Of a stretch of DNA of 64,000 bases, positions 2,775 to 61,315 are shown piece by piece; positions within the stretch are counted from its first letter, which is position 1; every line of letters starts with the position of its first letter. Made by a program: the position numbers and the translations under genes. The DNA is from Paludibacteraceae bacterium (lineage in GTDB: Bacteria > Bacteroidota > Bacteroidia > Bacteroidales > Paludibacteraceae), in assembly GCA_016302585.1 (NCBI GenBank), contig JAEDNI010000001.1, positions 17,412 through 81,411 on the forward strand, in the 5' to 3' direction. The notes below the pieces were generated by a model. The model made no database searches, was not told the origin of the DNA, and saw only the letters and a program-made list of their open reading frames with translations.

Positions 2775-4139
2775 ATGAAACGTTTATTTATAGCTTTGTT
2801 GAGCTTAGCCGCTTTGACATTCACAGCATGTAACACTAACAATCCAGACGGACCGGTTCCTGATTCGTTCCCGAAGAAACACTTGATTGAAGAATTCACG
2901 GGTCAAGGCTGTGGTTATTGCCCTTATGGTATGAATTGTATCAGTGACTTCACTGCCAATGACACCAATTTCATCGTTATACTGCATCACTATGGTTACA
3001 AGCAAGATCACTTTACGGTAAGCGGCAGTAAAACCATCACCAATACTTTGGGCGTAAACGGTGCTCCGAGTATGACTATTGACCGAGCCAAGACAAAGAC
3101 TGAAAAAGGTAGCCAAACGGTTTTCCACCCGGGTTATCTGCCTACGACAGATAAGGCTCAGTTTGCTACCACGACCTATGCATCAATCGAGATAAAGAAC
3201 AGTTACAATCCCGATTCGCGTGTGCTGACAGCACGTATCTCGGGTGCAGTTTGCACCAATGATCATCCGGAATTGTATCTGACTATTATGGTCAAAGAGT
3301 CCGGCATGCTGGACGTTCAAGCTGACTATTTAGGCAGTTTCGAAGGTTGGAAAGAATTCCGTCATACCAATGCTGTTCGCGCTTTTCTGACGGACGCCAA
3401 GGGTGATGTAGTTACGATAAAAAAGCAACGTTACGAAACTGAATACTCGGTGGTATTGGATGATAACTGGGTTCCGGAGAACTGTATGGTTGTTGCTATT
3501 CTGAGCGAGAACTTCAAGCCAATTATTCAGGCGGAGGAACGTCCGGTGATAGAGGGTACCACAGGTGGTGCAGATATTGAGTGTGGAGGAGTGACCCCGT
3601 ATCCGGTAGCCGACTATTACCCGGAGCCGAGTGCCACGTATGGCCCCAGTGTGTATTCGGGAAAAGAAGCCGATACCCTGACCATCTCTCAAACAGCGAT
3701 TACCGGACGAGAGTCAGATATCAATGAATGGACCATCATGGCTGCAGATCCGGATGGTAATGTTAAGGTAAACGGAACGCGTTGTATTCCGTTCGTATAT
3801 CTATATTTATATGTTGCTTCGGATGCTACTACTCTTCCGACAGGCACGTATGAGTTGAATCGTTCGGGTCAAATTGGAACGGCATACGCCGGTTATCGCA
3901 ACGATGAGCTTCAGCAATTGGAAGGATGTATCTTCTATTACACCGGAAGAAGTTCATACAGACAAGGTCATCTGGATCCAAAGGCGACATGGATGATTGC
4001 AGATGGTACACTCACCATTACAGAAGAGGGATGGGAACTGATTGGTCATACCCGAAACGGAGCGGATATCCATTTGGTAGGTTCCACACCTATCAAAGAT
4101 GTCAATGCTTCTGCTCCTGCTAAACTGAAGAGGTTATGA
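2775..4139 (+). CDS. Omp28-related lipoprotein with a CxxC motif
   Basis: Lipobox MKRLFIALLSLAALTFTAC and the motif EEFTGQGCGYCPYG. 454 aa. Confidence 0.65.
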   Translation: MKRLFIALLSLAALTFTACNTNNPDGPVPDSFPKKHLIEEFTGQGCGYCPYGMNCISDFTANDTNFIVILHHYGYKQDHFTVSGSKTITNTLGVNGAPSMTIDRAKTKTEKGSQTVFHPGYLPTTDKAQFATTTYASIEIKNSYNPDSRVLTARISGAVCTNDHPELYLTIMVKESGMLDVQADYLGSFEGWKEFRHTNAVRAFLTDAKGDVVTIKKQRYETEYSVVLDDNWVPENCMVVAILSENFKPIIQAEERPVIEGTTGGADIECGGVTPYPVADYYPEPSATYGPSVYSGKEADTLTISQTAITGRESDINEWTIMAADPDGNVKVNGTRCIPFVYLYLYVASDATTLPTGTYELNRSGQIGTAYAGYRNDELQQLEGCIFYYTGRSSYRQGHLDPKATWMIADGTLTITEEGWELIGHTRNGADIHLVGSTPIKDVNASAPAKLKRL

Positions 4140-7100
4140 GTTTTACCCACTTACATGTCCACTCTCATTACTCGCTCTTAGACGGATTGTCGAAGGTCGA
4201 GGAGATCGTTGATAAGTGTATTGCCTCCGGGATGAACTCGGTGGCATTGACCGACCATGGTAACATGTACGGAATCAAGGATCTGCTTGACTATTGCAAG
4301 AAAATCAACAAAGCACGTAAAGAGGATGGTTTAGAGCCATTCAAGCCGATCGTAGGATGCGAGGCATACTGTGCTCGTCGCGGTCGTTTATCCAAGAAAG
4401 AGGATAAAGCGGTGAACGCAGAAGGGCGCACATATGTCATCGATCGTTCAGGTTGGCACCTGATCCTACTGGCGAAGAACATGGAGGGTTATCATAACTT
4501 ATGCCGATTGGTATCACATGGCTATATGTCCGATGCGTTCTATCATACGCCGCGTATCGATAAAGAACTATTGGAGAAATGGCATGAAGGGATTATCTGC
4601 AGTTCGGCCTGTCTGGGTGGCGAGTTACCACAGAAAGTGTTGGATGGCCTTGCGAAAAACGACTTCAGCGAAGCGGAAGAGACTATTCAATGGTTTAAGA
4701 ACCTCTTTGGCGAAGATTATTATATCGAGCTACAGCGCCATGAGACGCAGAAACCAGGTGGAGACCAAGAGGTATATGAACGTCAGAAACAGGTCAACCC
4801 TGTGCTTATTGAGTTAGCACGCAAACACGGCGTGAAGATCATTGCCACCAACGATAGTCACTTTGTGAATGAAGAGGATGCAGAGGCGCATGATCGATTG
4901 ATATGCCTCAGCACAAACCACTATGTGAATGATATCAATCGTATGCACTATACGAAGCAGGAGTGGCTTAAGACACCGGAGGAAATGGAGGCTATCTTCA
5001 ACGATATACCCGAAGCTATCACGAATACACAGGAGATCGCAGATAAGGTAGAGATATACAATATCGATCACGATCCTATCATGCCGAAGTTCGATATCCC
5101 GGCTTCGTTCGGTAAAGAGGAAGATTATCCGGATCGACTGGCTTTCGAAGCCGCATACCTGCGTCACTTGACGATGGAAGGCGCGCTGGAGCGCTACGGC
5201 AAAGAGCGATTGGAGACCGATGAGGTGCTCAAAGAGCGAATTGAATTCGAGTTGAACACCATCATCTCGATGGGTTTCCCGGGCTATTTCCTGATCGTGA
5301 TGGATTTCATTCGTGCGGCCCGTGAAGAACTGGATGTCAGTGTGGGGCCCGGACGTGGATCGGCTGCCGGATCGGTAGTAGCGTACTGTTTAAAGATCAC
5401 TGACCTGGATCCGCTGAAATATGATTTACTGTTCGAGCGATTCTTGAATCCGGACCGTATCTCTTTGCCGGATATCGATACGGACTTCGAAGATTGCGGT
5501 CGCGGTAAAGTGCTGGATTACGTGAGTCGTAAATACGGCGAGACACATGTGGCACATATCGTGACATACGGTAAGATGGCAACCAAATCGGCTTTGGCGG
5601 ATGTAGGACGTGTGCAACAGGTGCCCCTTGCTTTTGTGAATGAATTAAAGGGCTACGTACCAGATCGTGATTTCCCGGATACGGTATTAAAGAGTCTACC
5701 TCCCGGCGCCAAGAAGCCGAAGGTGAACTTGAAAAACTGCTATAAGTACATCGATGAGTTAAAACGCGAGTACGAGACAGGTGATCCGAATACCCGCTCG
5801 ATGTTGGAATACGCGGCTCGCCTGGAAGGTACGATTCGTCAAGTAGGTGTGCATGCCTGCGGAGTGATCATCGGCGCGGATGACTTGACCAACTTCGCGC
5901 CGCTGAGTTCGGTAGAAGATAAGAACAGCAAGAAACGTGTGCTGGTAACGGAATACGACGGACATGTGGTAGAGAGTGTTGGTCTAATTAAGATGGACTT
6001 CCTCGGCCTCATCACCTTGACCATCATCAAGGAATGTCTGCGAAACGTCAAGAAAGCACGCGGTATTGATATCGACATCGATCATATACCCATTGATGAT
6101 GAGTTGACCTATAAGTTGTTCCAAGAGGGACGAACGGTAGCAGTGTTCCAGTTTGAGTCGGCAGGTATGCAGAAATACCTGCGCGAACTGCAGCCAACCG
6201 TAATCGGTGACTTAATCGCCATGAATGCCCTTTATCGACCGGGACCGATGGATTATATCCCGCAGTTCATCAAGCGTAAACAGGGTATCGAGCCTGTGAC
6301 GTACGATATACCAGTGATGGAGAAATACCTCAAAGACACCTATGGTGTGACGGTATATCAGGAGCAAGTGATGTTGCTGAGTCGATTGCTGGCTAACTTC
6401 ACCCGCGGCGAGAGTGATAAACTCCGTAAGGCTATGGGTAAGAAGCAGATGGATGTATTGGCGTCACTGCAGGATAAGTTTATGTCCGGCGGCAAGGCGA
6501 ACGGACACGACGAAAAGGTGCTGACGAAAATATGGGAAGACTGGAAGAAATTCGCCTCCTATGCATTTAATAAGTCGCATGCCGCTTGCTACTCCTGGGT
6601 GGCTTATCAGACAGGATACCTCAAAGCGCACTACCCTGCTGAGTTCATGGCAGCGAACCTCACCGTCCACAAAGACGACATCAAGGAAGTGACGAAACTC
6701 ATGGACGAGTGTCGTGCTTTGGGGCTGAGTGTATTAGAGCCTGATGTGAATGAATCCGAGTTATCGTTTACGGTAAATAGCAAGGGTGCAATCCGATTTG
6801 GTCTGGGTGGCATCAAGGGTGTAGGTGAAGGAGCAGTAGAAGCCATCATCAGCGAACGGGAGAAAAACGGTAAATACACCAGTATCTTTGATTTCCTCGA
6901 GCGTGTGAACCTGCAAAGTTGTAATAAGAAGACTATTGAAAATCTGGCTAAAGCGGGTGCTTTCGAATGCTTCGATGACATCTACCGAGAACAGTTCTTC
7001 GGCACAGATGAAATCGGTAACACTGGTCTGGAGTTGCTAATGAACTACGGCAATAAATGGCAGGCCGACAAAGCAGTTAATTCCAATTCGCTCTTCGGCG

Positions 7101-24783: not shown

Positions 24784-24865
24784 TCTTTAATTTACCATAA
24801 CGAAGAAACTCCTACCATCAACGTAGTAGAAGAAGCATGAAACGCCTCTTCATTGCTTGCGTGAA

Positions 24866-24985
24866 GCGATTGAAGCTGAAAGCGATTGAAGCTGAAAGCG
24901 ATTGAAGCTGAAAGCGATTGAAGCTGAAAGCGATTGAGGCTGAAAGCGATTGAGGCTGAAAGCGATTGAGGCTGAAAGCGATTGC
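24866..24985. repeat. 16-bp tandem array, 7.5 copies
   Basis: GCGATTGAAGCTGAAA x4, then GCGATTGAGGCTGAAA x3, then a partial copy. Intergenic. Confidence 0.95.
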
Positions 24986-56875: not shown

Positions 56876-57760
56876 TTAGAGCGAGCTTGGCCACGTATTG
56901 TTTTCTATTCCCGCTAAACGACATATCGTTGCGTGTGTCTCTTTCAATAAACGTTCGGTCTCTACGGCACGAGGTTTCGTAGTATCCGGATAGATAGGTG
57001 CCCCGATAACAACCTGCGTCAAGGGTTCATCCTTCGGTCCAAACAGACGCCATATTCCTGTCCGCTCGCGATAGGTAACTGCGAACGGAATGATAGGTTT
57101 GTTGTACTTATATGCCATCGTAAACGCACCTTTCTGGAACGGACGAAGCGGTTTATACCAATCCCAGCGCTTAGCCTCGGGGAAGATATGAAACCAATAA
57201 CCCTCTTTGTCATACGCATCGAACGCCGCATTAAAGGCTTTCATTGCACTCAAACCCGCTTCGGCGGAAGGAATAGGTATTCCGCCTACAATACGCAGAT
57301 AGAACTGGTCCTTGGTGCGGAAATTCGGTGCAAACATCGGTATACGCGTGCGCGGCGAAGCATGAAAAGTGGTCAATACAGAGGCGCAGTCATGGCGGTA
57401 ACAGTGGTTCGCGATGGTGATCGCACCGCGTGAAAGGTCGAACTGCTTCAGCCATCGACGAACACCACAGGACGAACGACGCCATTTTGTCTCGCCCTCA
57501 ATACGCCAGCGCAACCCGTATCTAATGCGCAAAATCCATCCCAAGATACGCAGCACAAAGCTATAGCCATACCACACGCGCAGCCTGTTACGCCAAGACG
57601 GATCATAATACGGATAGGTAGCATCTACCGGCAGATACTCCCGATCATAAACCGGCTTATACAAACCTACATACGGGTCGTCCTCCGGATAACTCATCGT
57701 CACGGGCGGTACATACGTACCTTCCGTCACTTTCAAATCAGTATATCGCTTATTTTCCAT
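56876..57760 (-). CDS. Lysophospholipid acyltransferase family protein
   Basis: HX4D motif ANHCYRHD and FPEAKRW. Confidence 0.7.
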   Translation of the reverse strand: MENKRYTDLKVTEGTYVPPVTMSYPEDDPYVGLYKPVYDREYLPVDATYPYYDPSWRNRLRVWYGYSFVLRILGWILRIRYGLRWRIEGETKWRRSSCGVRRWLKQFDLSRGAITIANHCYRHDCASVLTTFHASPRTRIPMFAPNFRTKDQFYLRIVGGIPIPSAEAGLSAMKAFNAAFDAYDKEGYWFHIFPEAKRWDWYKPLRPFQKGAFTMAYKYNKPIIPFAVTYRERTGIWRLFGPKDEPLTQVVIGAPIYPDTTKPRAVETERLLKETHATICRLAGIENNTWPSSL

Positions 57761-57803
57761 TCACCAATCACCAATTACCAATTACCAATCACCATTCACC
57801 AAT
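57755..57803 (-). repeat. Heptamer array ATTGGTN x7 (minus-strand reading) spanning the HAD stop and the acyltransferase start
   Basis: The + strand reads ttccatt caccaat caccaat taccaat taccaat caccatt caccaat. It encodes the HAD C-terminus LLVNGDW*, then a 21-nt spacer, then the next ATG. Confidence 0.9.
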
Positions 57804-58405
57804 AAAAACTTCGCTCCTACACTTCGCGCTGCAGCTCCGTCTTTCTCATCGCGGTCGCCCACAAACAATGTCGTCTCAGCCTCCGCTCCCATCAATTCCA
57901 ATACGCGGCGCGCGCAGTACTCCGAAGGCTTCAACGAACCCATTTCGGGAGCGGAAACCAGCAGTTCAAACTGACTCGGATCAACATGCAGCACTTCCAG
58001 TTTCTCTACCACACAGCCGTAATCCGAGAAGATGGCCATCTTGATGCCTCTTTCCTTGCACTCGGAAATAAGGTCCATCACTTCATGGCGAATCGGCTGA
58101 CGCTTGGCGATCAGACGAATCATTGCCGGCATATACACCAGTTCGTACCATTTAGCGGCTATCTTCGCATTCCACCAGTGGCCGCGAGCCATCATATGAA
58201 AGAAACAGTCATAAAACTCCTCTCCCGTCGCAAACTGCAGATAGTGCATGTTACGACGCGCCAGACGTTCGGACGTCAAAAGAGGCAGACACCAAAAGAG
58301 ACGTCTCACCATTCTACGCGCTAAGCCGCGTTTGTCATATAATGTACCATCAAGATCGAGAACGACGCTCTTGACGCCGTTTAGCACGTGCTTTTTGTCT
58401 GTCAT
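57782..58405 (-). CDS. HAD family hydrolase
   Basis: VVLDLDGTLY (motif I) and VGDRDEKDG (motif IV). Confidence 0.8.
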   Translation of the reverse strand: MTDKKHVLNGVKSVVLDLDGTLYDKRGLARRMVRRLFWCLPLLTSERLARRNMHYLQFATGEEFYDCFFHMMARGHWWNAKIAAKWYELVYMPAMIRLIAKRQPIRHEVMDLISECKERGIKMAIFSDYGCVVEKLEVLHVDPSQFELLVSAPEMGSLKPSEYCARRVLELMGAEAETTLFVGDRDEKDGAAARSVGAKFLLVNGDW

Positions 58406-60194
58406 CGATTTTATTTGCTCTTTCTATAACGAGCTCGCTAATGCGTTCGAAACTATCCTCCAAGCGTTGCAACATATTAAATTTCGTCCGACGTTTCTCG
58501 TCCTGCATCAGCAGGTTAAACTTAAACTGACCATCGCGGAATCCGTCCTTCAGACACGCTGCCTTGAAGCGCGCATAGGCGTTCGAAAGCAAGATATGGG
58601 TCTCCGGTTCATGTAAGCGATAGGACTGCCGTTTACTCTCATACTCGAGGTTGATATGTTGCAGTTTCTCGTCCACCACTTTCGTAAACGCCTCGGCCTG
58701 TTCCTGACGAATCTTCTCGTTCTCAAACTCGTAGTAGAAGTGGTATTTCGACTCCTCCACATCCGCAAAGCCCACGAAGAACTTCGTCTTGATGCCCGTC
58801 TCCTCTTCCGCCTGATGCACAGCGTTCATGAACTGCAGTTCATACAGTTTCTCGCCTGTCATGGAGACAATACCATTCACTTTCGACACCATATGAACCG
58901 TAGGCGTATTCTTGTACCTTCCGCCCACCTCCACCAGGTCATTCATGTTATAGCGGTACAGACCCGAATAGGTCGTCACATACGCGCAGTAGCGTTTGCC
59001 CAACTCCAATTCATCGATCTGAAGGAAGTGTTTACGGGGACTGTCTAACTCGCTCTCCTCAACAAACTCATAGTAATGGAACTGCGGGAAGAGCACACTC
59101 TCATTCGTATCATCCAGCGAGAAGCCGAAACGGCACTCCGTCGCAATATATCCCAACTCCTGATAGAAGGTCTTATCCCAGTCAAACTGGTCCATGTACT
59201 TATCCATGTAGATCTTCGTGTTACCGCATTTCCACGTACTGAGGTATTGCAACCAAGGCCAGAAATCCTTCGGATACATATGTCCCGTCTCCTCGAGAAT
59301 CTTACGCAACTCTGCGGCACGTTCCGGTTTGGGTGAGATATACTGGTCTAACTCCGCACGAATCTCAAACGGAATATCGAAGTTCTCGCTGATACCGCCT
59401 GTCTCGATATCATGAAGCATCTCCTCAAGGTTCTCATTCATCACGCGCAGCAACTCCAATATCGTCGAGGGGTTGGCTGTGGCCCATAGCGTCACATCTC
59501 GATGCTGAAGCGCCAAACGCATCAAGGTATAGTTACGTGCACCATAATCCGGAATGGACATCACGGCCGCTGGACCCGTATAATGCTTCTTGATAATAGA
59601 CGGAATATCGCGAACCAACACACCACTCACCGAGCCATACAAGGTACCGTCAGGAGCATAACCTTCGCATTCCTTGCCTACCGTCGTGAAGATATGACCG
59701 CCAAAGATGCGGCTGCGGTGCTTAACAAAGTTCCACGTCCAGATATGACTCATCTTGCCGTACACATCCTTCAGGTACTTATGGGTCATCGGAATCCATT
59801 TCGGTTCACTCGTCGTACCCGATGTGGTAGCATACATATCCGGTTTACCCGGAAACAGCACATTCTCTTCGCCGTTCTTATGACGCTCCACATACGGACG
59901 CAAGGTCTCAAAACTATTGTTTACCGGCACATACAAGCGATACAGACGGAACAAATCCTCCGCCGTCGTAGCACTTAAGATACGATCAAAATGGTGCTCC
60001 TTGCCATACACGGTATCACGCGAAATAGTCAGAATGTCACGCAGCGTCTTCTCCGCCGTGTGACGCGGCTTACGGCTCCAGAAGCGCAAACGGACAGTCT
60101 GAGAACCGCCTACCAACCAAAGCATGAAATTAATTAACCAGGGATAAGGTAAGGCTCTGCCTTCCTGGTCAACATAGGGTTTTATCTTTGCCAT
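58350..60194 (-). CDS. GH3 (auxin-responsive promoter) family adenylating enzyme homologue
   Basis: About 614 aa. ATTSGTTSEPKWIP is an AMP-forming motif typical of the GH3 family. Basic C-terminal tail. I prefer the start at MAKIKPYV (60194) over 60233. Confidence 0.7.
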   Translation of the reverse strand: MAKIKPYVDQEGRALPYPWLINFMLWLVGGSQTVRLRFWSRKPRHTAEKTLRDILTISRDTVYGKEHHFDRILSATTAEDLFRLYRLYVPVNNSFETLRPYVERHKNGEENVLFPGKPDMYATTSGTTSEPKWIPMTHKYLKDVYGKMSHIWTWNFVKHRSRIFGGHIFTTVGKECEGYAPDGTLYGSVSGVLVRDIPSIIKKHYTGPAAVMSIPDYGARNYTLMRLALQHRDVTLWATANPSTILELLRVMNENLEEMLHDIETGGISENFDIPFEIRAELDQYISPKPERAAELRKILEETGHMYPKDFWPWLQYLSTWKCGNTKIYMDKYMDQFDWDKTFYQELGYIATECRFGFSLDDTNESVLFPQFHYYEFVEESELDSPRKHFLQIDELELGKRYCAYVTTYSGLYRYNMNDLVEVGGRYKNTPTVHMVSKVNGIVSMTGEKLYELQFMNAVHQAEEETGIKTKFFVGFADVEESKYHFYYEFENEKIRQEQAEAFTKVVDEKLQHINLEYESKRQSYRLHEPETHILLSNAYARFKAACLKDGFRDGQFKFNLLMQDEKRRTKFNMLQRLEDSFERISELVIERANKIDDRQKARAKRRQERRSRS

Positions 60195-60202
60195 ACGTCT
60201 TG

Positions 60203-60904
60203 TTATTTCTCTATTGTATAAGCGTAGTTGCATACGCGGATGAACGCCTCATACCCGCCGCGCACCTTGCGATACATACGCGTGATACGCCAGGCGTTCT
60301 GCGCATAAGGAACGACCGATCCGTATTTAGTCACCGCTTCCCAGTTAATCTCCGACTCCACATTCGATTCTGTCTCGTAATTACGCATCAGCAACTCGTC
60401 GTTATAATACATCTCGATGGAACTGATATGTACTGCGGATACATTGTCATATGCATACGTGCTCTTTACGGTATAGCCGAAGAACTGTTTCTTAGAAGCT
60501 ATCACATCCACCGATGCATTCTCCACATGCGCCTCTGTCACATCGTCGTTCTGCATGGAGGTAGAAGTAAGCAACGCCTTACACTCCACATCACATTGAC
60601 CCAACAAGTTGATGCGCGCCATGGCATTCGCTTGCGCTTCAGCTTCTTCTAAAGACGGACAAACCGACGAAATGCCTTCGCCGATAATATATTTATGCGA
60701 TAGCTCCCCCTCCGCATCGTATTGCACGTTCATCGTCTGCTCTATCTGCTCCGCCATAGGTTGAGCATCGGGAAAAGCACGCCAACCCTCACGGGACAAA
60801 CGCATGGCTTCCTTACGAACCGCCCTACTCACCGCCTGAACTTGAACCGACACGCCCAACAGGCATACCATCGCTATTCCAATTATAAGTCTATTTGTCT
60901 TCAT
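60203..60904 (-). CDS. Secreted hypothetical protein (233 aa)
   Basis: Signal peptide MKTNRLIIGIAMVCLLGVSVQVQA. I recognise no family. It is preceded by a repeat-filled leader. Confidence 0.55.
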   Translation of the reverse strand: MKTNRLIIGIAMVCLLGVSVQVQAVSRAVRKEAMRLSREGWRAFPDAQPMAEQIEQTMNVQYDAEGELSHKYIIGEGISSVCPSLEEAEAQANAMARINLLGQCDVECKALLTSTSMQNDDVTEAHVENASVDVIASKKQFFGYTVKSTYAYDNVSAVHISSIEMYYNDELLMRNYETESNVESEINWEAVTKYGSVVPYAQNAWRITRMYRKVRGGYEAFIRVCNYAYTIEK

Positions 60905-60996
60905 ATTTAAAGTCTATTTGTCTTCCAATTAAAAGTCTATTTGTCTTCCAATTAAAAGTCTATTTGTCTTCCAATTAAAAGTCTATTTGTTTTCAT
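60885..60996 (-). repeat. 23-bp tandem array, about 5 copies; copy 1 contains the gene's start codon
   Basis: + strand units begin at 60885, 60908, 60931, 60954 and 60977, reading (a/t)aAAGTCTATTTGT(c/t)TTC(cat/cca)ATT. Confidence 0.95.
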
Positions 60997-61108
60997 AGGC
61001 TCAAAAATTCGTTTGCTTACATAGGCTCAAAATTCGTTTGTTTGCATAGGCTCAAAATTCGTTTGCTTGCATAGGCTCAAAATTCGTTTGTTTGCATAGG
61101 CCCATACC
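60994..61108 (-). repeat. 25/26-bp tandem array, 4.5 copies
   Basis: CATAGGCTCAAAA(A)TTCGTTTG(c/t)TT(a/g), with units at 60994, 61020, 61045 and 61070 plus a partial at 61095. Confidence 0.95.
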
Positions 61109-61130
61109 TACGCAAATTACAATTTGCGTG

Positions 61131-61162
61131 CAAAGGTACTAAAAAAAAATGAAATACACAAG
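61131..61162 (-). promoter_or_regulatory. Promoter (-33 TTG / -7 TACCTTTG) upstream of the repeat leader
   Basis: The minus strand reads CTTGtgtatttcatttttttttagTACCTTTGcacgcaaatt. Confidence 0.65.
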
Positions 61163-61208
61163 AATTTATCCTTAAAAAAAATTCAACTTGCAATCCCCGT
61201 TGGACAAA

Positions 61209-61263
61209 TAGTAGGTGATTAGTAGGTGATTAGTAGGTGATTAGTAGGTGATTAGTAGGTTAT
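61209..61263. repeat. 11-bp tandem array x5
   Basis: TAGTAGGTGAT x4 plus TAGTAGGTTAT, located 47-100 bp upstream of the -33 element. Confidence 0.95.
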
Positions 61264-61315
61264 AATCGGTATCAAAGGCAAACCATCTTATTACGTCCAT
61301 ATTCCGTATATACAC

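Follow-up and report, generated by a model that had tools for sequence, protein, structure and literature searches.

Variable start-region repeats in the putative leader of a Paludibacteraceae gene and their possible effect on translation

In Neisseria opa (CTCTT) and Streptococcus pyogenes sclB (CAAAA), repeats in the 5' coding or signal-peptide region switch genes by frameshift, and multi-uORF leaders are known from yeast GCN4 and from bacterial leader peptides. Gut and rumen Bacteroidales are known for invertible promoters, and work continues on how Bacteroidia ribosomes choose start codons in the absence of Shine-Dalgarno pairing. The Haemophilus influenzae genes hmw1A and hmw2A carry a heptanucleotide repeat, (ATCTTTC)n, in the 5'-UTR (PMC12721329; PMC8262952), and the expression of hmw1A is inverse to the copy number of this transcribed tandem repeat (PMC12721329). 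In Porphyromonas gingivalis, BrickBuilt is a dispersed minisatellite/MITE present at 19 loci per genome (ATCC 33277), always intergenic at 49 to 591 nt from the nearest coding sequence, with leader and tail flanks that end in the TIRs GAGACCTTTGCA and CCGAAAGGTCTC (PMC4596501). Start selection in Bacteroidia involves A at positions -3, -6, -12, and -13 and low structure, and genuine starts are depleted of other AUGs over a distance of about 20 nt; the TSS of F. johnsoniae genes is found 4 to 5 nt past the -7 element (PMC6847099).

The locus described here was found in a window of 64,000 nucleotides (the whole stretch of DNA that was analysed) from an uncultured Paludibacteraceae bacterium of the gut or rumen. 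Two arrays on the minus strand stand between a conserved TAnnTTTG box and an ORF of 233 codons (Table 1). Tandem Repeats Finder reported them with a period of 23 (5.1 copies, 60877-60994, 91% matches, score of 201) and a period of 25 (4.6 copies, 60986-61101, 92% matches, score of 195). Allowing up to 3 mismatches, the 23-mer consensus had 5 matches in the window and none in 100 dinucleotide-preserving shuffles; the 25-mer consensus had 3, plus a fourth copy of 26 bp, and none in the shuffles. The sequence-only reading had described a start region duplicated in tandem about nine times, and these proved to be four units of 25/26 bp and five of 23 bp. Reading of the minus strand also bore out the main ATG at 60904, the TGG replacing ATG in the three middle 23-mers, and the ATG at 60996 in the most upstream 23-mer, which opens a uORF encoding MKTNRLLIGRQIDF. 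Each 25/26-mer has its own ATG and mini-ORF, exactly as had been proposed (MQTNEF, MQANEF, and MQTNEF, each followed by a stop, and ATG-TAA, encoding M alone); these ATGs are at 61097, 61072, 61047, and 61022. The five or six decoy starts claimed amount to six upstream ATGs, once a previously unlisted one at 61105 is included.

The box upstream of the arrays, at 61138-61131, was already noted in the same reading, and its conservation suggests a promoter role: all relatives, even those of the diverged L003 and L005 clades, have it at the corresponding position as TA(cc/at/ct)TTTG. The motif is not discriminating alone (42 occurrences versus roughly 31 expected in 128 kb of both strands), and a test for its enrichment before crudely assigned gene starts of the window was uninformative. 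Scans for sigma-70 promoters and terminators, models that are not relevant to Bacteroidetes, gave no more matches than shuffled sequences. The palindrome directly after the box, a candidate operator or 5' hairpin, is kept in L003 (with no spacer), in L005, and in all close relatives. The minimum free energy of the leader was -47.4 kcal/mol, versus -40.1 +/- 4.1 for shuffles; no long hairpin involving the arrays was predicted in the leader RNA, and a structured-RNA leader is not supported at this z score (-1.8). An Rfam search of the 58 to 64 kb region returned only RalA, elsewhere and below threshold (24 bits versus a gathering score of 170).

Table 1. Features of the repeat locus and the putative operon, in window coordinates
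Feature	Position	Strand	Remarks
Third array, 11-bp unit CCTACTAATCA, 4.7 copies	61209..61260	(-)	About 70 bp upstream of the promoter box
Putative Bacteroidetes-type -7 promoter box TACCTTTG	61131..61138	(-)	Read directly; a TSS would lie 4-5 nt downstream
Perfect 9+9 palindrome ACGCAAATT-gt-AATTTGCGT	61110..61129	(-)	Directly after the box; inverted repeat, 100% complementary
Extra uORF, 17 codons, MGLCKQTNFEPMQANEF, then stop	61053..61105	(-)	ATG at 61105, +33 from the promoter box
25/26-bp array, four units, GCCTATG[C/T]AA[A/G]CAAACGAATTTT(T)GA	61001..61101	(-)	Sequence reading and Tandem Repeats Finder
25/26-bp units one by one	61101-61077, 61076-61052, 61051-61027, 61026-61001	(-)	
23-bp array, five units, register [ATG/TGG]AA[A/G]ACAAATAGACTT(T/A)(T/A)AAT	60882..60996	(-)	
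23-mer copy c1	60996-60974	(-)	ATG
23-mer copy c2	60973-60951	(-)	TGG
23-mer copy c3	60950-60928	(-)	TGG
23-mer copy c4	60927-60905	(-)	TGG
23-mer copy c5	60904-60882	(-)	ATG, functional start; encodes MKTNRLII, signal peptide
uORF from the ancestral start codon, MKTNRLLIGRQIDF, then stop	60952..60996	(-)	Frame differs from main ORF; stop inside 23-mer copy c2
Main ORF, 233 aa	60203..60904	(-)	Signal-peptide-like N terminus MKTNRLIIGIAMVCLLGVSVQVQA/VS; first gene of conserved cluster
Downstream genes of the putative operon	56876..60194	(-)	
GH3-family enzyme, putative operon	58350-60194	(-)	Pfam
HAD hydrolase, putative operon	57782-58405	(-)	Pfam
Fourth array, 7-bp unit [A/T]TGGT[G/A]A, 6.7 copies	57757..57803	(-)	Covers HAD 3' end and acyltransferase start region
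Acyltransferase, putative operon	56876-57760	(-)	Pfam

Comparison with relatives shows that the units arose within the lineage by duplication of the start region of this same gene, an origin that had been suspected and that the repeat-free outgroups L003 and L005 support. In these outgroups, whose proteins are 69% and 65% identical, respectively, the same box and palindrome are followed by a short leader that runs straight into ATGAAAAAGAGTAGACTT, with no 23- or 25-mer array; the proteins begin with MKKSRLLVGIAMVCLL or MKKERVWIGIV. The first 15 nt of the 25/26-mer (GCCTATGnAAACAAA) match the native gene start, and a hybrid unit in L011 (GCCTATGAAAACAAACGAATTTTTGA) connects the two. Several scenarios fit the exact order of duplication behind the ATG-TGG-...-ATG arrangement, and none was singled out. 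The corresponding region of the L005 clade holds an unrelated insertion of 45 nt that lies between TGCTTA repeats. In L026, L013, and L027, a TIR-bearing insert (GTCCCATTAAAA...TTTTAATGGGAC) lies inside the 23-mer array and has ends similar to the unit.

In a set of about 25 independent contigs, both the 25/26-mer and the 23-mer ranged from 1 to 5 copies, so that the proposed variation between strains was found and an identical number in all of them was not. Writing alleles as (number of 25/26-mers, number of 23-mers), the window carries (4,5), L012 (at least 2.3, 3) with a protein that is the same as that of the window from M12 onward, L028 (2,3), and L021 (5,2); the last three come from SRR27722926, ERZ940875, and ERZ27309604, respectively. 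Three contigs (L010, L002, and L030) are (1,2), two (L001 and L011) are (2,1), and nine show (1,1), the commonest and a stable state. Within the sub-lineage of the window (box TACCTTTG or TACTTTTG, then GTAGG in the leader), no two of the six contigs carry the same allele. These copy numbers come from short-read metagenome assemblies, which may collapse or break repeats, and several contigs end in or at the arrays; such breaks are suggestive of frequent, reversible copy-number change within a clonal population but do not constitute evidence of it, and the differences seen are between samples. Internal 23-mer copies read TGG in all alleles, and every allele showing the gene start has an in-frame ATG in the ORF-proximal copy and an intact ORF. 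An ON/OFF device based on uORF phasing, as first envisaged, finds no support in this pattern. Changes in copy number occur upstream of the functional start, so its frame is unaffected. Frameshift phase variation was rejected, since the last copy invariably holds the functional ATG and the roughly 25 contigs yielded no OFF allele. Judged by these alleles, the locus is a hypervariable VNTR in a leader that would be transcribed from the putative promoter and TSS, and it does not switch a gene ON/OFF by frameshift.

Among known systems, the hmw 5'-UTR repeat of H. influenzae comes closest. Both loci have an array that is transcribed, or here predicted to be, between a promoter (here putative) and the start codon, with copy numbers that differ between strains. 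Variation at hmw results in graded expression and not in ON/OFF states, while a graded effect is here a proposal. The hmw repeat has a 7-bp unit in 11 to 63 copies with no AUG in the unit, whereas the present arrays have units of 23 to 26 bp in 1 to 5 copies, consisting of start-region copies with AUGs and mini-ORFs. Moreover, hmw forms a long hairpin with a G-rich arm and is cleaved by RNase III, whereas no strong RNA structure is predicted here.

With BrickBuilt, the locus shares the phylum, a 23-nt unit, spacerless head-to-tail copies, and promoter proximity. The likeness of the units is one of length only, the BrickBuilt consensus being given as a figure (PMC4596501). In contrast to BrickBuilt, there is one locus in the 64 kb, and its unit derives from and overlaps the coding start, the last 23-mer encoding residues 1 to 8. 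The array flanks are the native promoter/leader and ORF, both common to repeat-free relatives. The BrickBuilt TIR pattern, with up to 2 mismatches, gave 4 matches versus 4.5 expected by chance, none of them at the locus. Neither unit recurs in the rest of the 64-kb window, which is too small to exclude dispersal at BrickBuilt density (about 1 per 120 kb), and the flanks of 31 related loci contained no further copy. Scans of viral contigs gave a single unrelated chance match to the 23-mer (L032) and none to the 25-mer or 11-mer. Membership in BrickBuilt was rejected, given the absence of TIRs and flanks and the overlap of the unit with coding sequence. The kinship suggested by the sequence-only reading comes down to a common length of 23 nt, the array being neither intergenic nor flanked by TIRs and showing no dispersal in 64 kb.

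As in opa and sclB, the repeats involve the signal-peptide start sequence and have units whose length is not divisible by 3. However, the opa and sclB tracts lie downstream of the functional start and set the frame, whereas at the present locus the last copy contains the functional ATG and the frame is constant. The stack of several very short ORFs before the main start recalls GCN4 and leader peptides, and the overlap of a uORF stop with the main ATG (ATGA) in L002, L008, and L010 is a classic termination-reinitiation geometry, as in multi-uORF leaders. Unlike in those systems, nothing here suggests a sensing function, and the uORFs are recent copies of the N terminus that vary between strains. 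In one lineage (L009), the sole 25/26-mer reads ATA where the others have ATG, and the uORF is therefore not essential.

The 233-aa protein matched no family in Pfam or NCBIfam, and its AlphaFold2 model (pLDDT of 45) was too poor for a fold search. Its homologs form only 8 clusters, from metagenomes throughout. The synteny of its gene with those encoding the GH3-family enzyme, the HAD hydrolase, and the acyltransferase is found in L001, L002, and L005, and the gene order and 9-nt spacing after the 233-aa gene are also those of L001 and L002. This cluster, with an adjoining PagL-like gene, plausibly modifies envelope lipids.

The lineage makes no use of Shine-Dalgarno sequences, and the most likely effect of the arrays would be heritable tuning of translation. 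We give a probability of about 0.45 to the reading that serial duplication of the start region produced locus-specific minisatellites, prone to slippage or recombination, whose copy number heritably tunes translation. Bacteroidia ribosomes would ignore Shine-Dalgarno sequences and choose accessible AUGs from their local context, and each 25/26-mer, a replica of the ancestral initiation site (GAGCCU-AUG-nAAACAAA), could act as a decoy opening a mini-ORF of 1 to 9 codons. The 23-mer copies would lengthen the leader, give the real AUG another, A-richer upstream context with A at -3, and, in arrays of at least 3 copies, leave a minimum of about 47 nt free of AUG before it. Like a volume knob, a change in copy number would then shift translation of the first gene in a lipid-related operon to a new heritable level, and not act as an ON/OFF switch. 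The decoy AUGs have C at -3 and G at -6, identical to the genuine start of (1,1) alleles, and the main AUG of the window has A at -3, 8 A residues in -15 to -1, and a predicted P(unpaired) of 0.54. The ATG at 61105 and that of the first 25-mer are predicted to be buried in one hairpin, with a mean P(unpaired) of 0.25 to 0.31 around these first two AUGs. A translational throttle of this kind would be consistent with start selection in Bacteroidia (PMC6847099).

Nearly as likely, the arrays could be a neutral mutational hotspot, an AT-rich start region prone to replication slippage or unequal recombination, whose effect on expression is incidental and small and in which selection merely removes alleles that lose the ORF-proximal ATG. 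The predominance of the unexpanded (1,1) allele, the loss of the ATG in the L009 unit, the unrelated insertion in the L005 clade, and the undistinctive structure of the leader RNA are all in line with neutrality. So are the unrelated 11-mer, 7-mer, and 16-mer arrays in the same genome region, which suggest a general tendency to tandem repeats, and mutation rate alone could yield six distinct alleles in one sub-lineage. Nevertheless, Bacteroidia deplete AUG near genuine starts (PMC6847099), and up to six accessible native-context AUGs are thus unlikely to be without any effect. The invariable placing of TGG in internal 23-mers and of ATG in terminal ones suggests selection on AUG arrangement, and the 3.5-kb operon region holds four of the six strong arrays of the 64-kb window, a clustering that also speaks against neutrality.

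An action at the DNA or transcription level, in which the 25/26-mers add weak internal promoters and thereby leaderless or short-leader transcripts, seems improbable. Each 25/26-mer does contain a near-consensus -7 box (gAATTTTG or aATTTTTG) that agrees with TAnnTTTG at 7 of 8 positions, but the first T is replaced in all units, and the match carries little weight because the motif alone is barely enriched in the window. The TTTG of the preceding unit lies 17 nt upstream, short of the consensus spacing of roughly 19 to 21 nt. The -7-like box ends 5 nt before the next ATG, and the spacing known from F. johnsoniae would put a TSS at or beside the A of that ATG (PMC6847099).

We consider it very improbable that the arrays or their copy numbers were produced by short-read assembly. 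Contigs do break in or at arrays in L012, L019, and L022 to L024 and in L031, the left side of L025 looks chimeric, and the 5-copy 23-mer array occurs in no contig other than that of the window; however, TGG-type internal copies (L012 and L028) and a 5-copy 25-mer array (L021) are found again in independent assemblies, which come from different studies and were made with different assemblers, the copies are told apart by substitutions, and arrays of about 100 to 115 bp each are shorter than the k of 141 used in several assemblies, according to their "k141" contig names. An inverton or MITE-like cassette, with promoter and leader between inverted repeats (11-mer flanks versus 23-mer unit) and the 23-mer array as the amplified arm of a recombination site, seems highly improbable: colinear blocks (ATACC[G/A]ATTATAA...CTATTTGTC versus GACAAATAGACTTATAATTGGAAT), an inverted-repeat signal reached in 4 to 52 of 1,000 shuffles for some alleles, and the TIR insert with unit-like ends in three contigs point to it, but the signal does not rise above chance in the window and L010 (121 to 143 of 1,000 shuffles) and absent from the L005 clade despite its 11-mer array, the right arm is native coding sequence common to L003, all of the roughly 20 promoter-containing contigs have one orientation, and no recombinase was found among the genes examined beside the locus.

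Tuning of translation by copy number, our preferred reading, would extend to a broader claim that we regard as doubtful, namely that a ladder of decoy starts made of a gene's own initiation sites is a new kind of expression rheostat in non-Shine-Dalgarno bacteria. If it held, slippage in copy number would reset the share of ribosomes reaching the real start of a surface-lipid operon, through the choice of start codon and not through changes in reading frame or in promoter spacing. Start-proximal VNTRs, of which the window has at least 3, would then correspond, in Bacteroidales, to the SSR contingency loci known from Haemophilus and Neisseria, and would be a first indication that gut and rumen Bacteroidales also diversify expression through leader repeat number. 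The locus offers a natural allelic series, with the same promoter and ORF and 1 to 9 native initiation-site copies in the leader, suited to asking whether native-context upstream AUGs compete, relay ribosomes by reinitiation, or are ignored. Neutral arrays would still make it a useful high-resolution strain marker.

The other arrays of the operon region are variable too. The 11-mer array has 4 to 7 or more copies and is present in the diverged L005 clade and absent from L003, and the 7-mer array is missing in L002 and L008 (...TTATTGGTGAATGGAAAAT...) and has roughly 3 to 4 units in L001 and L009. Elsewhere in the window, a 16-bp array at 24864 had appeared to interrupt a gene just after its ATG. 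This was rejected, as homologous genes begin about 45 nt past the array, which is a leader array of another gene.

The locus consists of a minus-strand ORF of 233 aa (60904-60203) and an upstream region in which the terminator of the upstream lipoprotein gene is followed by the 11-bp array, the spacer, the TAnnTTTG box, the palindrome, the 25/26-mers and the 23-mers. Tandem Repeats Finder gave the 23-mer and 25/26-mer arrays scores of 201 and 195, with 91-92% inter-copy matches. The 23-mer and 25-mer consensuses had zero matches in 100 dinucleotide-preserving shuffles and none elsewhere in the window, whose 64 kb are small relative to the density of BrickBuilt elements. The minus strand reads as the sequence-only reading had described it: the main ATG lies at 60904 (MKTNRL...), TGG replaces ATG in the three middle 23-mer copies, an ATG at 60996 opens MKTNRLLIGRQIDF*, and the 25/26-mers encode the mini-ORFs MQTNEF*, MQANEF*, MQTNEF* and ATG-TAA. 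An extra ATG at 61105 opens a 17-codon uORF, so that six upstream ATGs precede the real start.

Repeat arrays and leader elements in the window (positions of the window)
Feature	Position	Strand	Remark
11-bp array CCTACTAATCA x 4.7	61260-61209	-	direct reading of strand
A/T-rich spacer, ~70 bp	between 11-bp array and box	-	direct reading of strand
Box TACCTTTG	61138-61131	-	direct reading of strand
Perfect palindrome ACGCAAATT-gt-AATTTGCGT	61129-61110	-	directly 3' of -7 box
Four 25/26-bp units GCCTATGnAAnCAAACGAATTTT(T)GA	61101-61001	-	
Five 23-bp units	60996-60882	-	
7-bp array [A/T]TGGT[G/A]A, 6.7 copies	57757-57803	-	HAD 3' end to acyltransferase start region
16-bp array AAGCGATTGAAGCTGA, 7.6 copies, 99% matches	24864-24984	+	5' leader of small conserved gene

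The N terminus of the ORF is a typical signal peptide. No Pfam or NCBIfam family matched the protein, its AlphaFold2 model (pLDDT 45) was too poor for use, and its homologs formed only 8 clusters, all metagenomic, among 5.8 billion proteins. Two GTDB representatives bear the gene, both uncultured Bacteroidales MAGs (one is the rumen genome RUG631), and other contigs come from pig-gut and rumen metagenomes. A GH3-family enzyme starts 9 nt past the ORF, with genes for a HAD hydrolase and an acyltransferase next in line; upstream, the opposite strand carries a PagL-like gene. Relatives keep this gene order, suggesting that the cluster is probably an envelope-lipid operon.

Repeat-free relatives show the proposal that the repeated unit is the start-codon region itself to be correct. 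Two distant clades carry the same gene (contigs L003/L004, 69% protein identity, and L005-L007, 65%), with a TA(cc/at)TTTG box and the palindrome but no 23- or 25-bp arrays. Within 39 nt after the box, L003 has ATGAAAAAGAGTAGACTTTTGGTGGGAATAGCAATGG, encoding MKKSRLLVGIAMVCLL; this region is plainly homologous to ATGAAGACAAATAGACTTATAATTGGAATAGCGATGG (MKTNRLIIGIAMVCLL) of the window, which identifies the 23-mer as the native start codon followed by the first seven and two-thirds codons. For its first 15 nt (GCCTATGnAAACAAA) the 25/26-mer agrees with the native start, and L011 has a hybrid unit (GCCTATGAAAACAAACGAATTTTTGA) that connects the two repeats. An unrelated insertion of ~45 nt, flanked by TGCTTA direct repeats, lies just 5' of the ATG in L005 (2966-3012), L006 and L007, so this initiation region was remodelled independently in that lineage too. 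The palindrome, a candidate operator or hairpin at the 5' end of the mRNA, is kept in all clades (in L003 as an 18-bp form without spacer).

Shine-Dalgarno pairing plays no part in initiation by Bacteroidia ribosomes. In F. johnsoniae, low structure and an A at -3, -6, -12 and -13 favour initiation, the ~20 nt around genuine starts are depleted of AUG, the mean leader is 33 nt and transcription begins 4-5 nt past the -7 box (PMC6847099). By these norms a leader of ~220 nt with six extra AUGs would be abnormal. Every 25/26-mer AUG has the context (GAGCCU-AUG, C at -3, G at -6) of the genuine start in alleles with one copy of each unit; if that start works, the decoys should work too. Whole-leader folding predicted the first two AUGs in a hairpin (P(unpaired) 0.25-0.31), later decoys increasingly open (0.39-0.55) and the main AUG open (0.54), in an RNA that was not unusually structured (z = -1.8). 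In the window, the main AUG is preceded by A at -3, by 8 A within -15..-1 and by ~47 nt without AUG, which the TGG copies provide. Mini-ORFs of the 25-bp form stop 4 nt ahead of the following AUG. Where the unit has 26 bp, and also in alleles with two 23-mers, the uORF stop codon shares bases with the following ATG (ATGA). Both geometries would permit termination-reinitiation.

We therefore consider two readings of the arrays. Most likely, they would tune translation of the first gene heritably, like a volume control, and might also affect how stable the operon mRNA is: the number of copies would fix how many decoy initiation sites there are, how long the leader is and in which context the real AUG stands. 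Neither the sign nor the size of such an effect is predictable from sequence. Almost as likely, the locus is a neutral slippage hotspot in which purifying selection retains the last ATG. The sole 25/26-mer of L009 has ATA in place of ATG, so the uORF is dispensable.

The 11-mer array, with the unit CCTACTAAT[C/A]A, has 4 to 7 or more copies and occurs also in L005 (2741-2815), L002 (2747-2799) and L008 (2726-2778). The L005 clade (65% protein identity) keeps its sequence amid diverged intergenic DNA; L003 lacks the array. Its presence in the L005 clade makes it older than the other arrays, and its period, close to one helical turn, could reflect a phased protein-binding array. The flanks of this array (61260-61272 and 61203-61211) show colinear inverted matches to the 23-mer unit (60876-60899), of 13 nt at 85% and 9 nt at 100%, as if promoter and leader formed an inverton-like cassette between them. 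In shuffle tests the pairing gave an equivocal signal, not robustly above chance (by allele, between 4 and 143 of 1000 shuffles reached it, and 143 of 1000 for the window). Compared with window positions 61140-61200, the DNA between 11-mer array and box is replaced and ~125 bp longer in the GTDB representatives L008 and L009 (~2790-2930) and in L015-L016.

The variation on which a volume control would depend, for which the sequence-only reading had proposed a comparison of strains, was found when ~25 more contigs from independent assemblies, all in the clade of the window (proteins 93-100% identical), were parsed, every copy number deriving from short-read assemblies. Written as numbers of 25/26-mers and 23-mers, alleles ranged from (1,1) to (4,5), that of the window, and (5,2), that of L021. 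L028 is (2,3); L010, L002 and L030 are (1,2); L001 and L011 are (2,1); L008, L009, L014-L018, L020 and L029, including both GTDB representatives, are (1,1). L012, whose protein equals that of the window from M12 onward, has at least 2.3 and 3 copies. In the window's sub-lineage, defined by a TACCTTTG or TACTTTTG box and then GTAGG in the leader, the alleles of all six contigs differ. Within the clade, (1,1) appears to be the ancestral state; it is stable, which is expected because slippage needs more than one copy. Several short-read contigs break off within or at an array (L012, L019, L022-L024, L031), which fits within-sample heterogeneity without proving it. Against the view that the copy numbers are an artefact of short-read assembly, TGG-type internal copies (L012, L028) and the five-copy 25-mer array (L021) recur across assemblies from different studies. 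In L025 (1-87), a ribosomal-protein-like coding sequence (...RKGPKRTV) is joined directly to a 25-mer unit, probably a chimeric assembly via the common GCAAACAAACGAA string.

In every allele the ORF-adjacent copy has an in-frame ATG, and the ORF is intact. The first 23-mer copy always has ATG, the ancestral start, and the internal copies, of which the window shows three and L012 and L028 one each, have TGG in all five cases. Any 23-mer duplication puts a stop codon in frame with the ancestral ATG, so expanded alleles rely on the last-copy ATG, and copy-number changes upstream of it cannot shift the frame. Unit lengths of 23 and 25, neither divisible by 3, thus alter uORF phasing, as proposed, but leave the main-ORF frame unchanged. 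In L011 the first ATG is in frame with the main ORF and predicts an N-terminally extended protein of 253 aa. Since the window and the ~25 clade contigs include no OFF allele and the start lies in the last copy, an ON/OFF frameshift switch of the opa/sclB type, here with repeats upstream of the functional start, is not supported.

The closest functional analogue would be the heptanucleotide array upstream of H. influenzae hmw1A/hmw2A, which is transcribed in the 5'-UTR, has 11 to 63 copies by strain, and lowers expression when longer via a long RNase III-cleaved hairpin (PMC12721329). Both arrays lie between promoter (here a predicted one) and start and vary among strains; unit size, AUG content and RNA structure differ. 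The likeness to BrickBuilt is limited to phylum and a 23-nt period. BrickBuilt is a dispersed MITE with 19 loci, always intergenic, whose leader and tail flanks end in TIRs (PMC4596501), whereas the present unit overlaps coding sequence, its flanks are native sequence common to repeat-free relatives, and no BrickBuilt TIR was found at the locus; kinship with BrickBuilt is not supported. A partial literature search, no proof of absence, returned no bacterial repeat with the start-codon region as unit. The locus is a 5'-leader VNTR whose unit is unusual; its chief value lies in the natural series of alleles that it offers for work on how Bacteroidia choose start codons.

Three pig-gut contigs carry ~174 bp or more inserted between the first and last 23-mer copy (L026 382-555, L013 ~126-300, L027 ~157-330). 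This insert has terminal inverted repeats (GTCCCATTAAAA / TTTTAATGGGAC), is bracketed by the 13-bp direct repeat ATAG[G/A]CTTT[C/T]AAT and resembles the 23-mer at its ends (10/12 positions); it is possibly a MITE targeting this site. Its body is absent from the window. The 7-bp array, in the same operon, is also variable: the window, L001 (~3330-3377) and L009 (~6090-6137) have it, L002 and L008 do not, and in these two the HAD stop and the acyltransferase ATG overlap. The array alters the HAD C terminus from ...LLVNGK* to ...LLVNGDW* and adds an upstream ATG. Homologs (123-144 aa) of the gene behind the 16-bp array start MPIVVEELGIEGTTFHSD, ~45 nt downstream of the array, and, compared with the 123-aa homologs, the window's copy seems to change frame after residue ~60.
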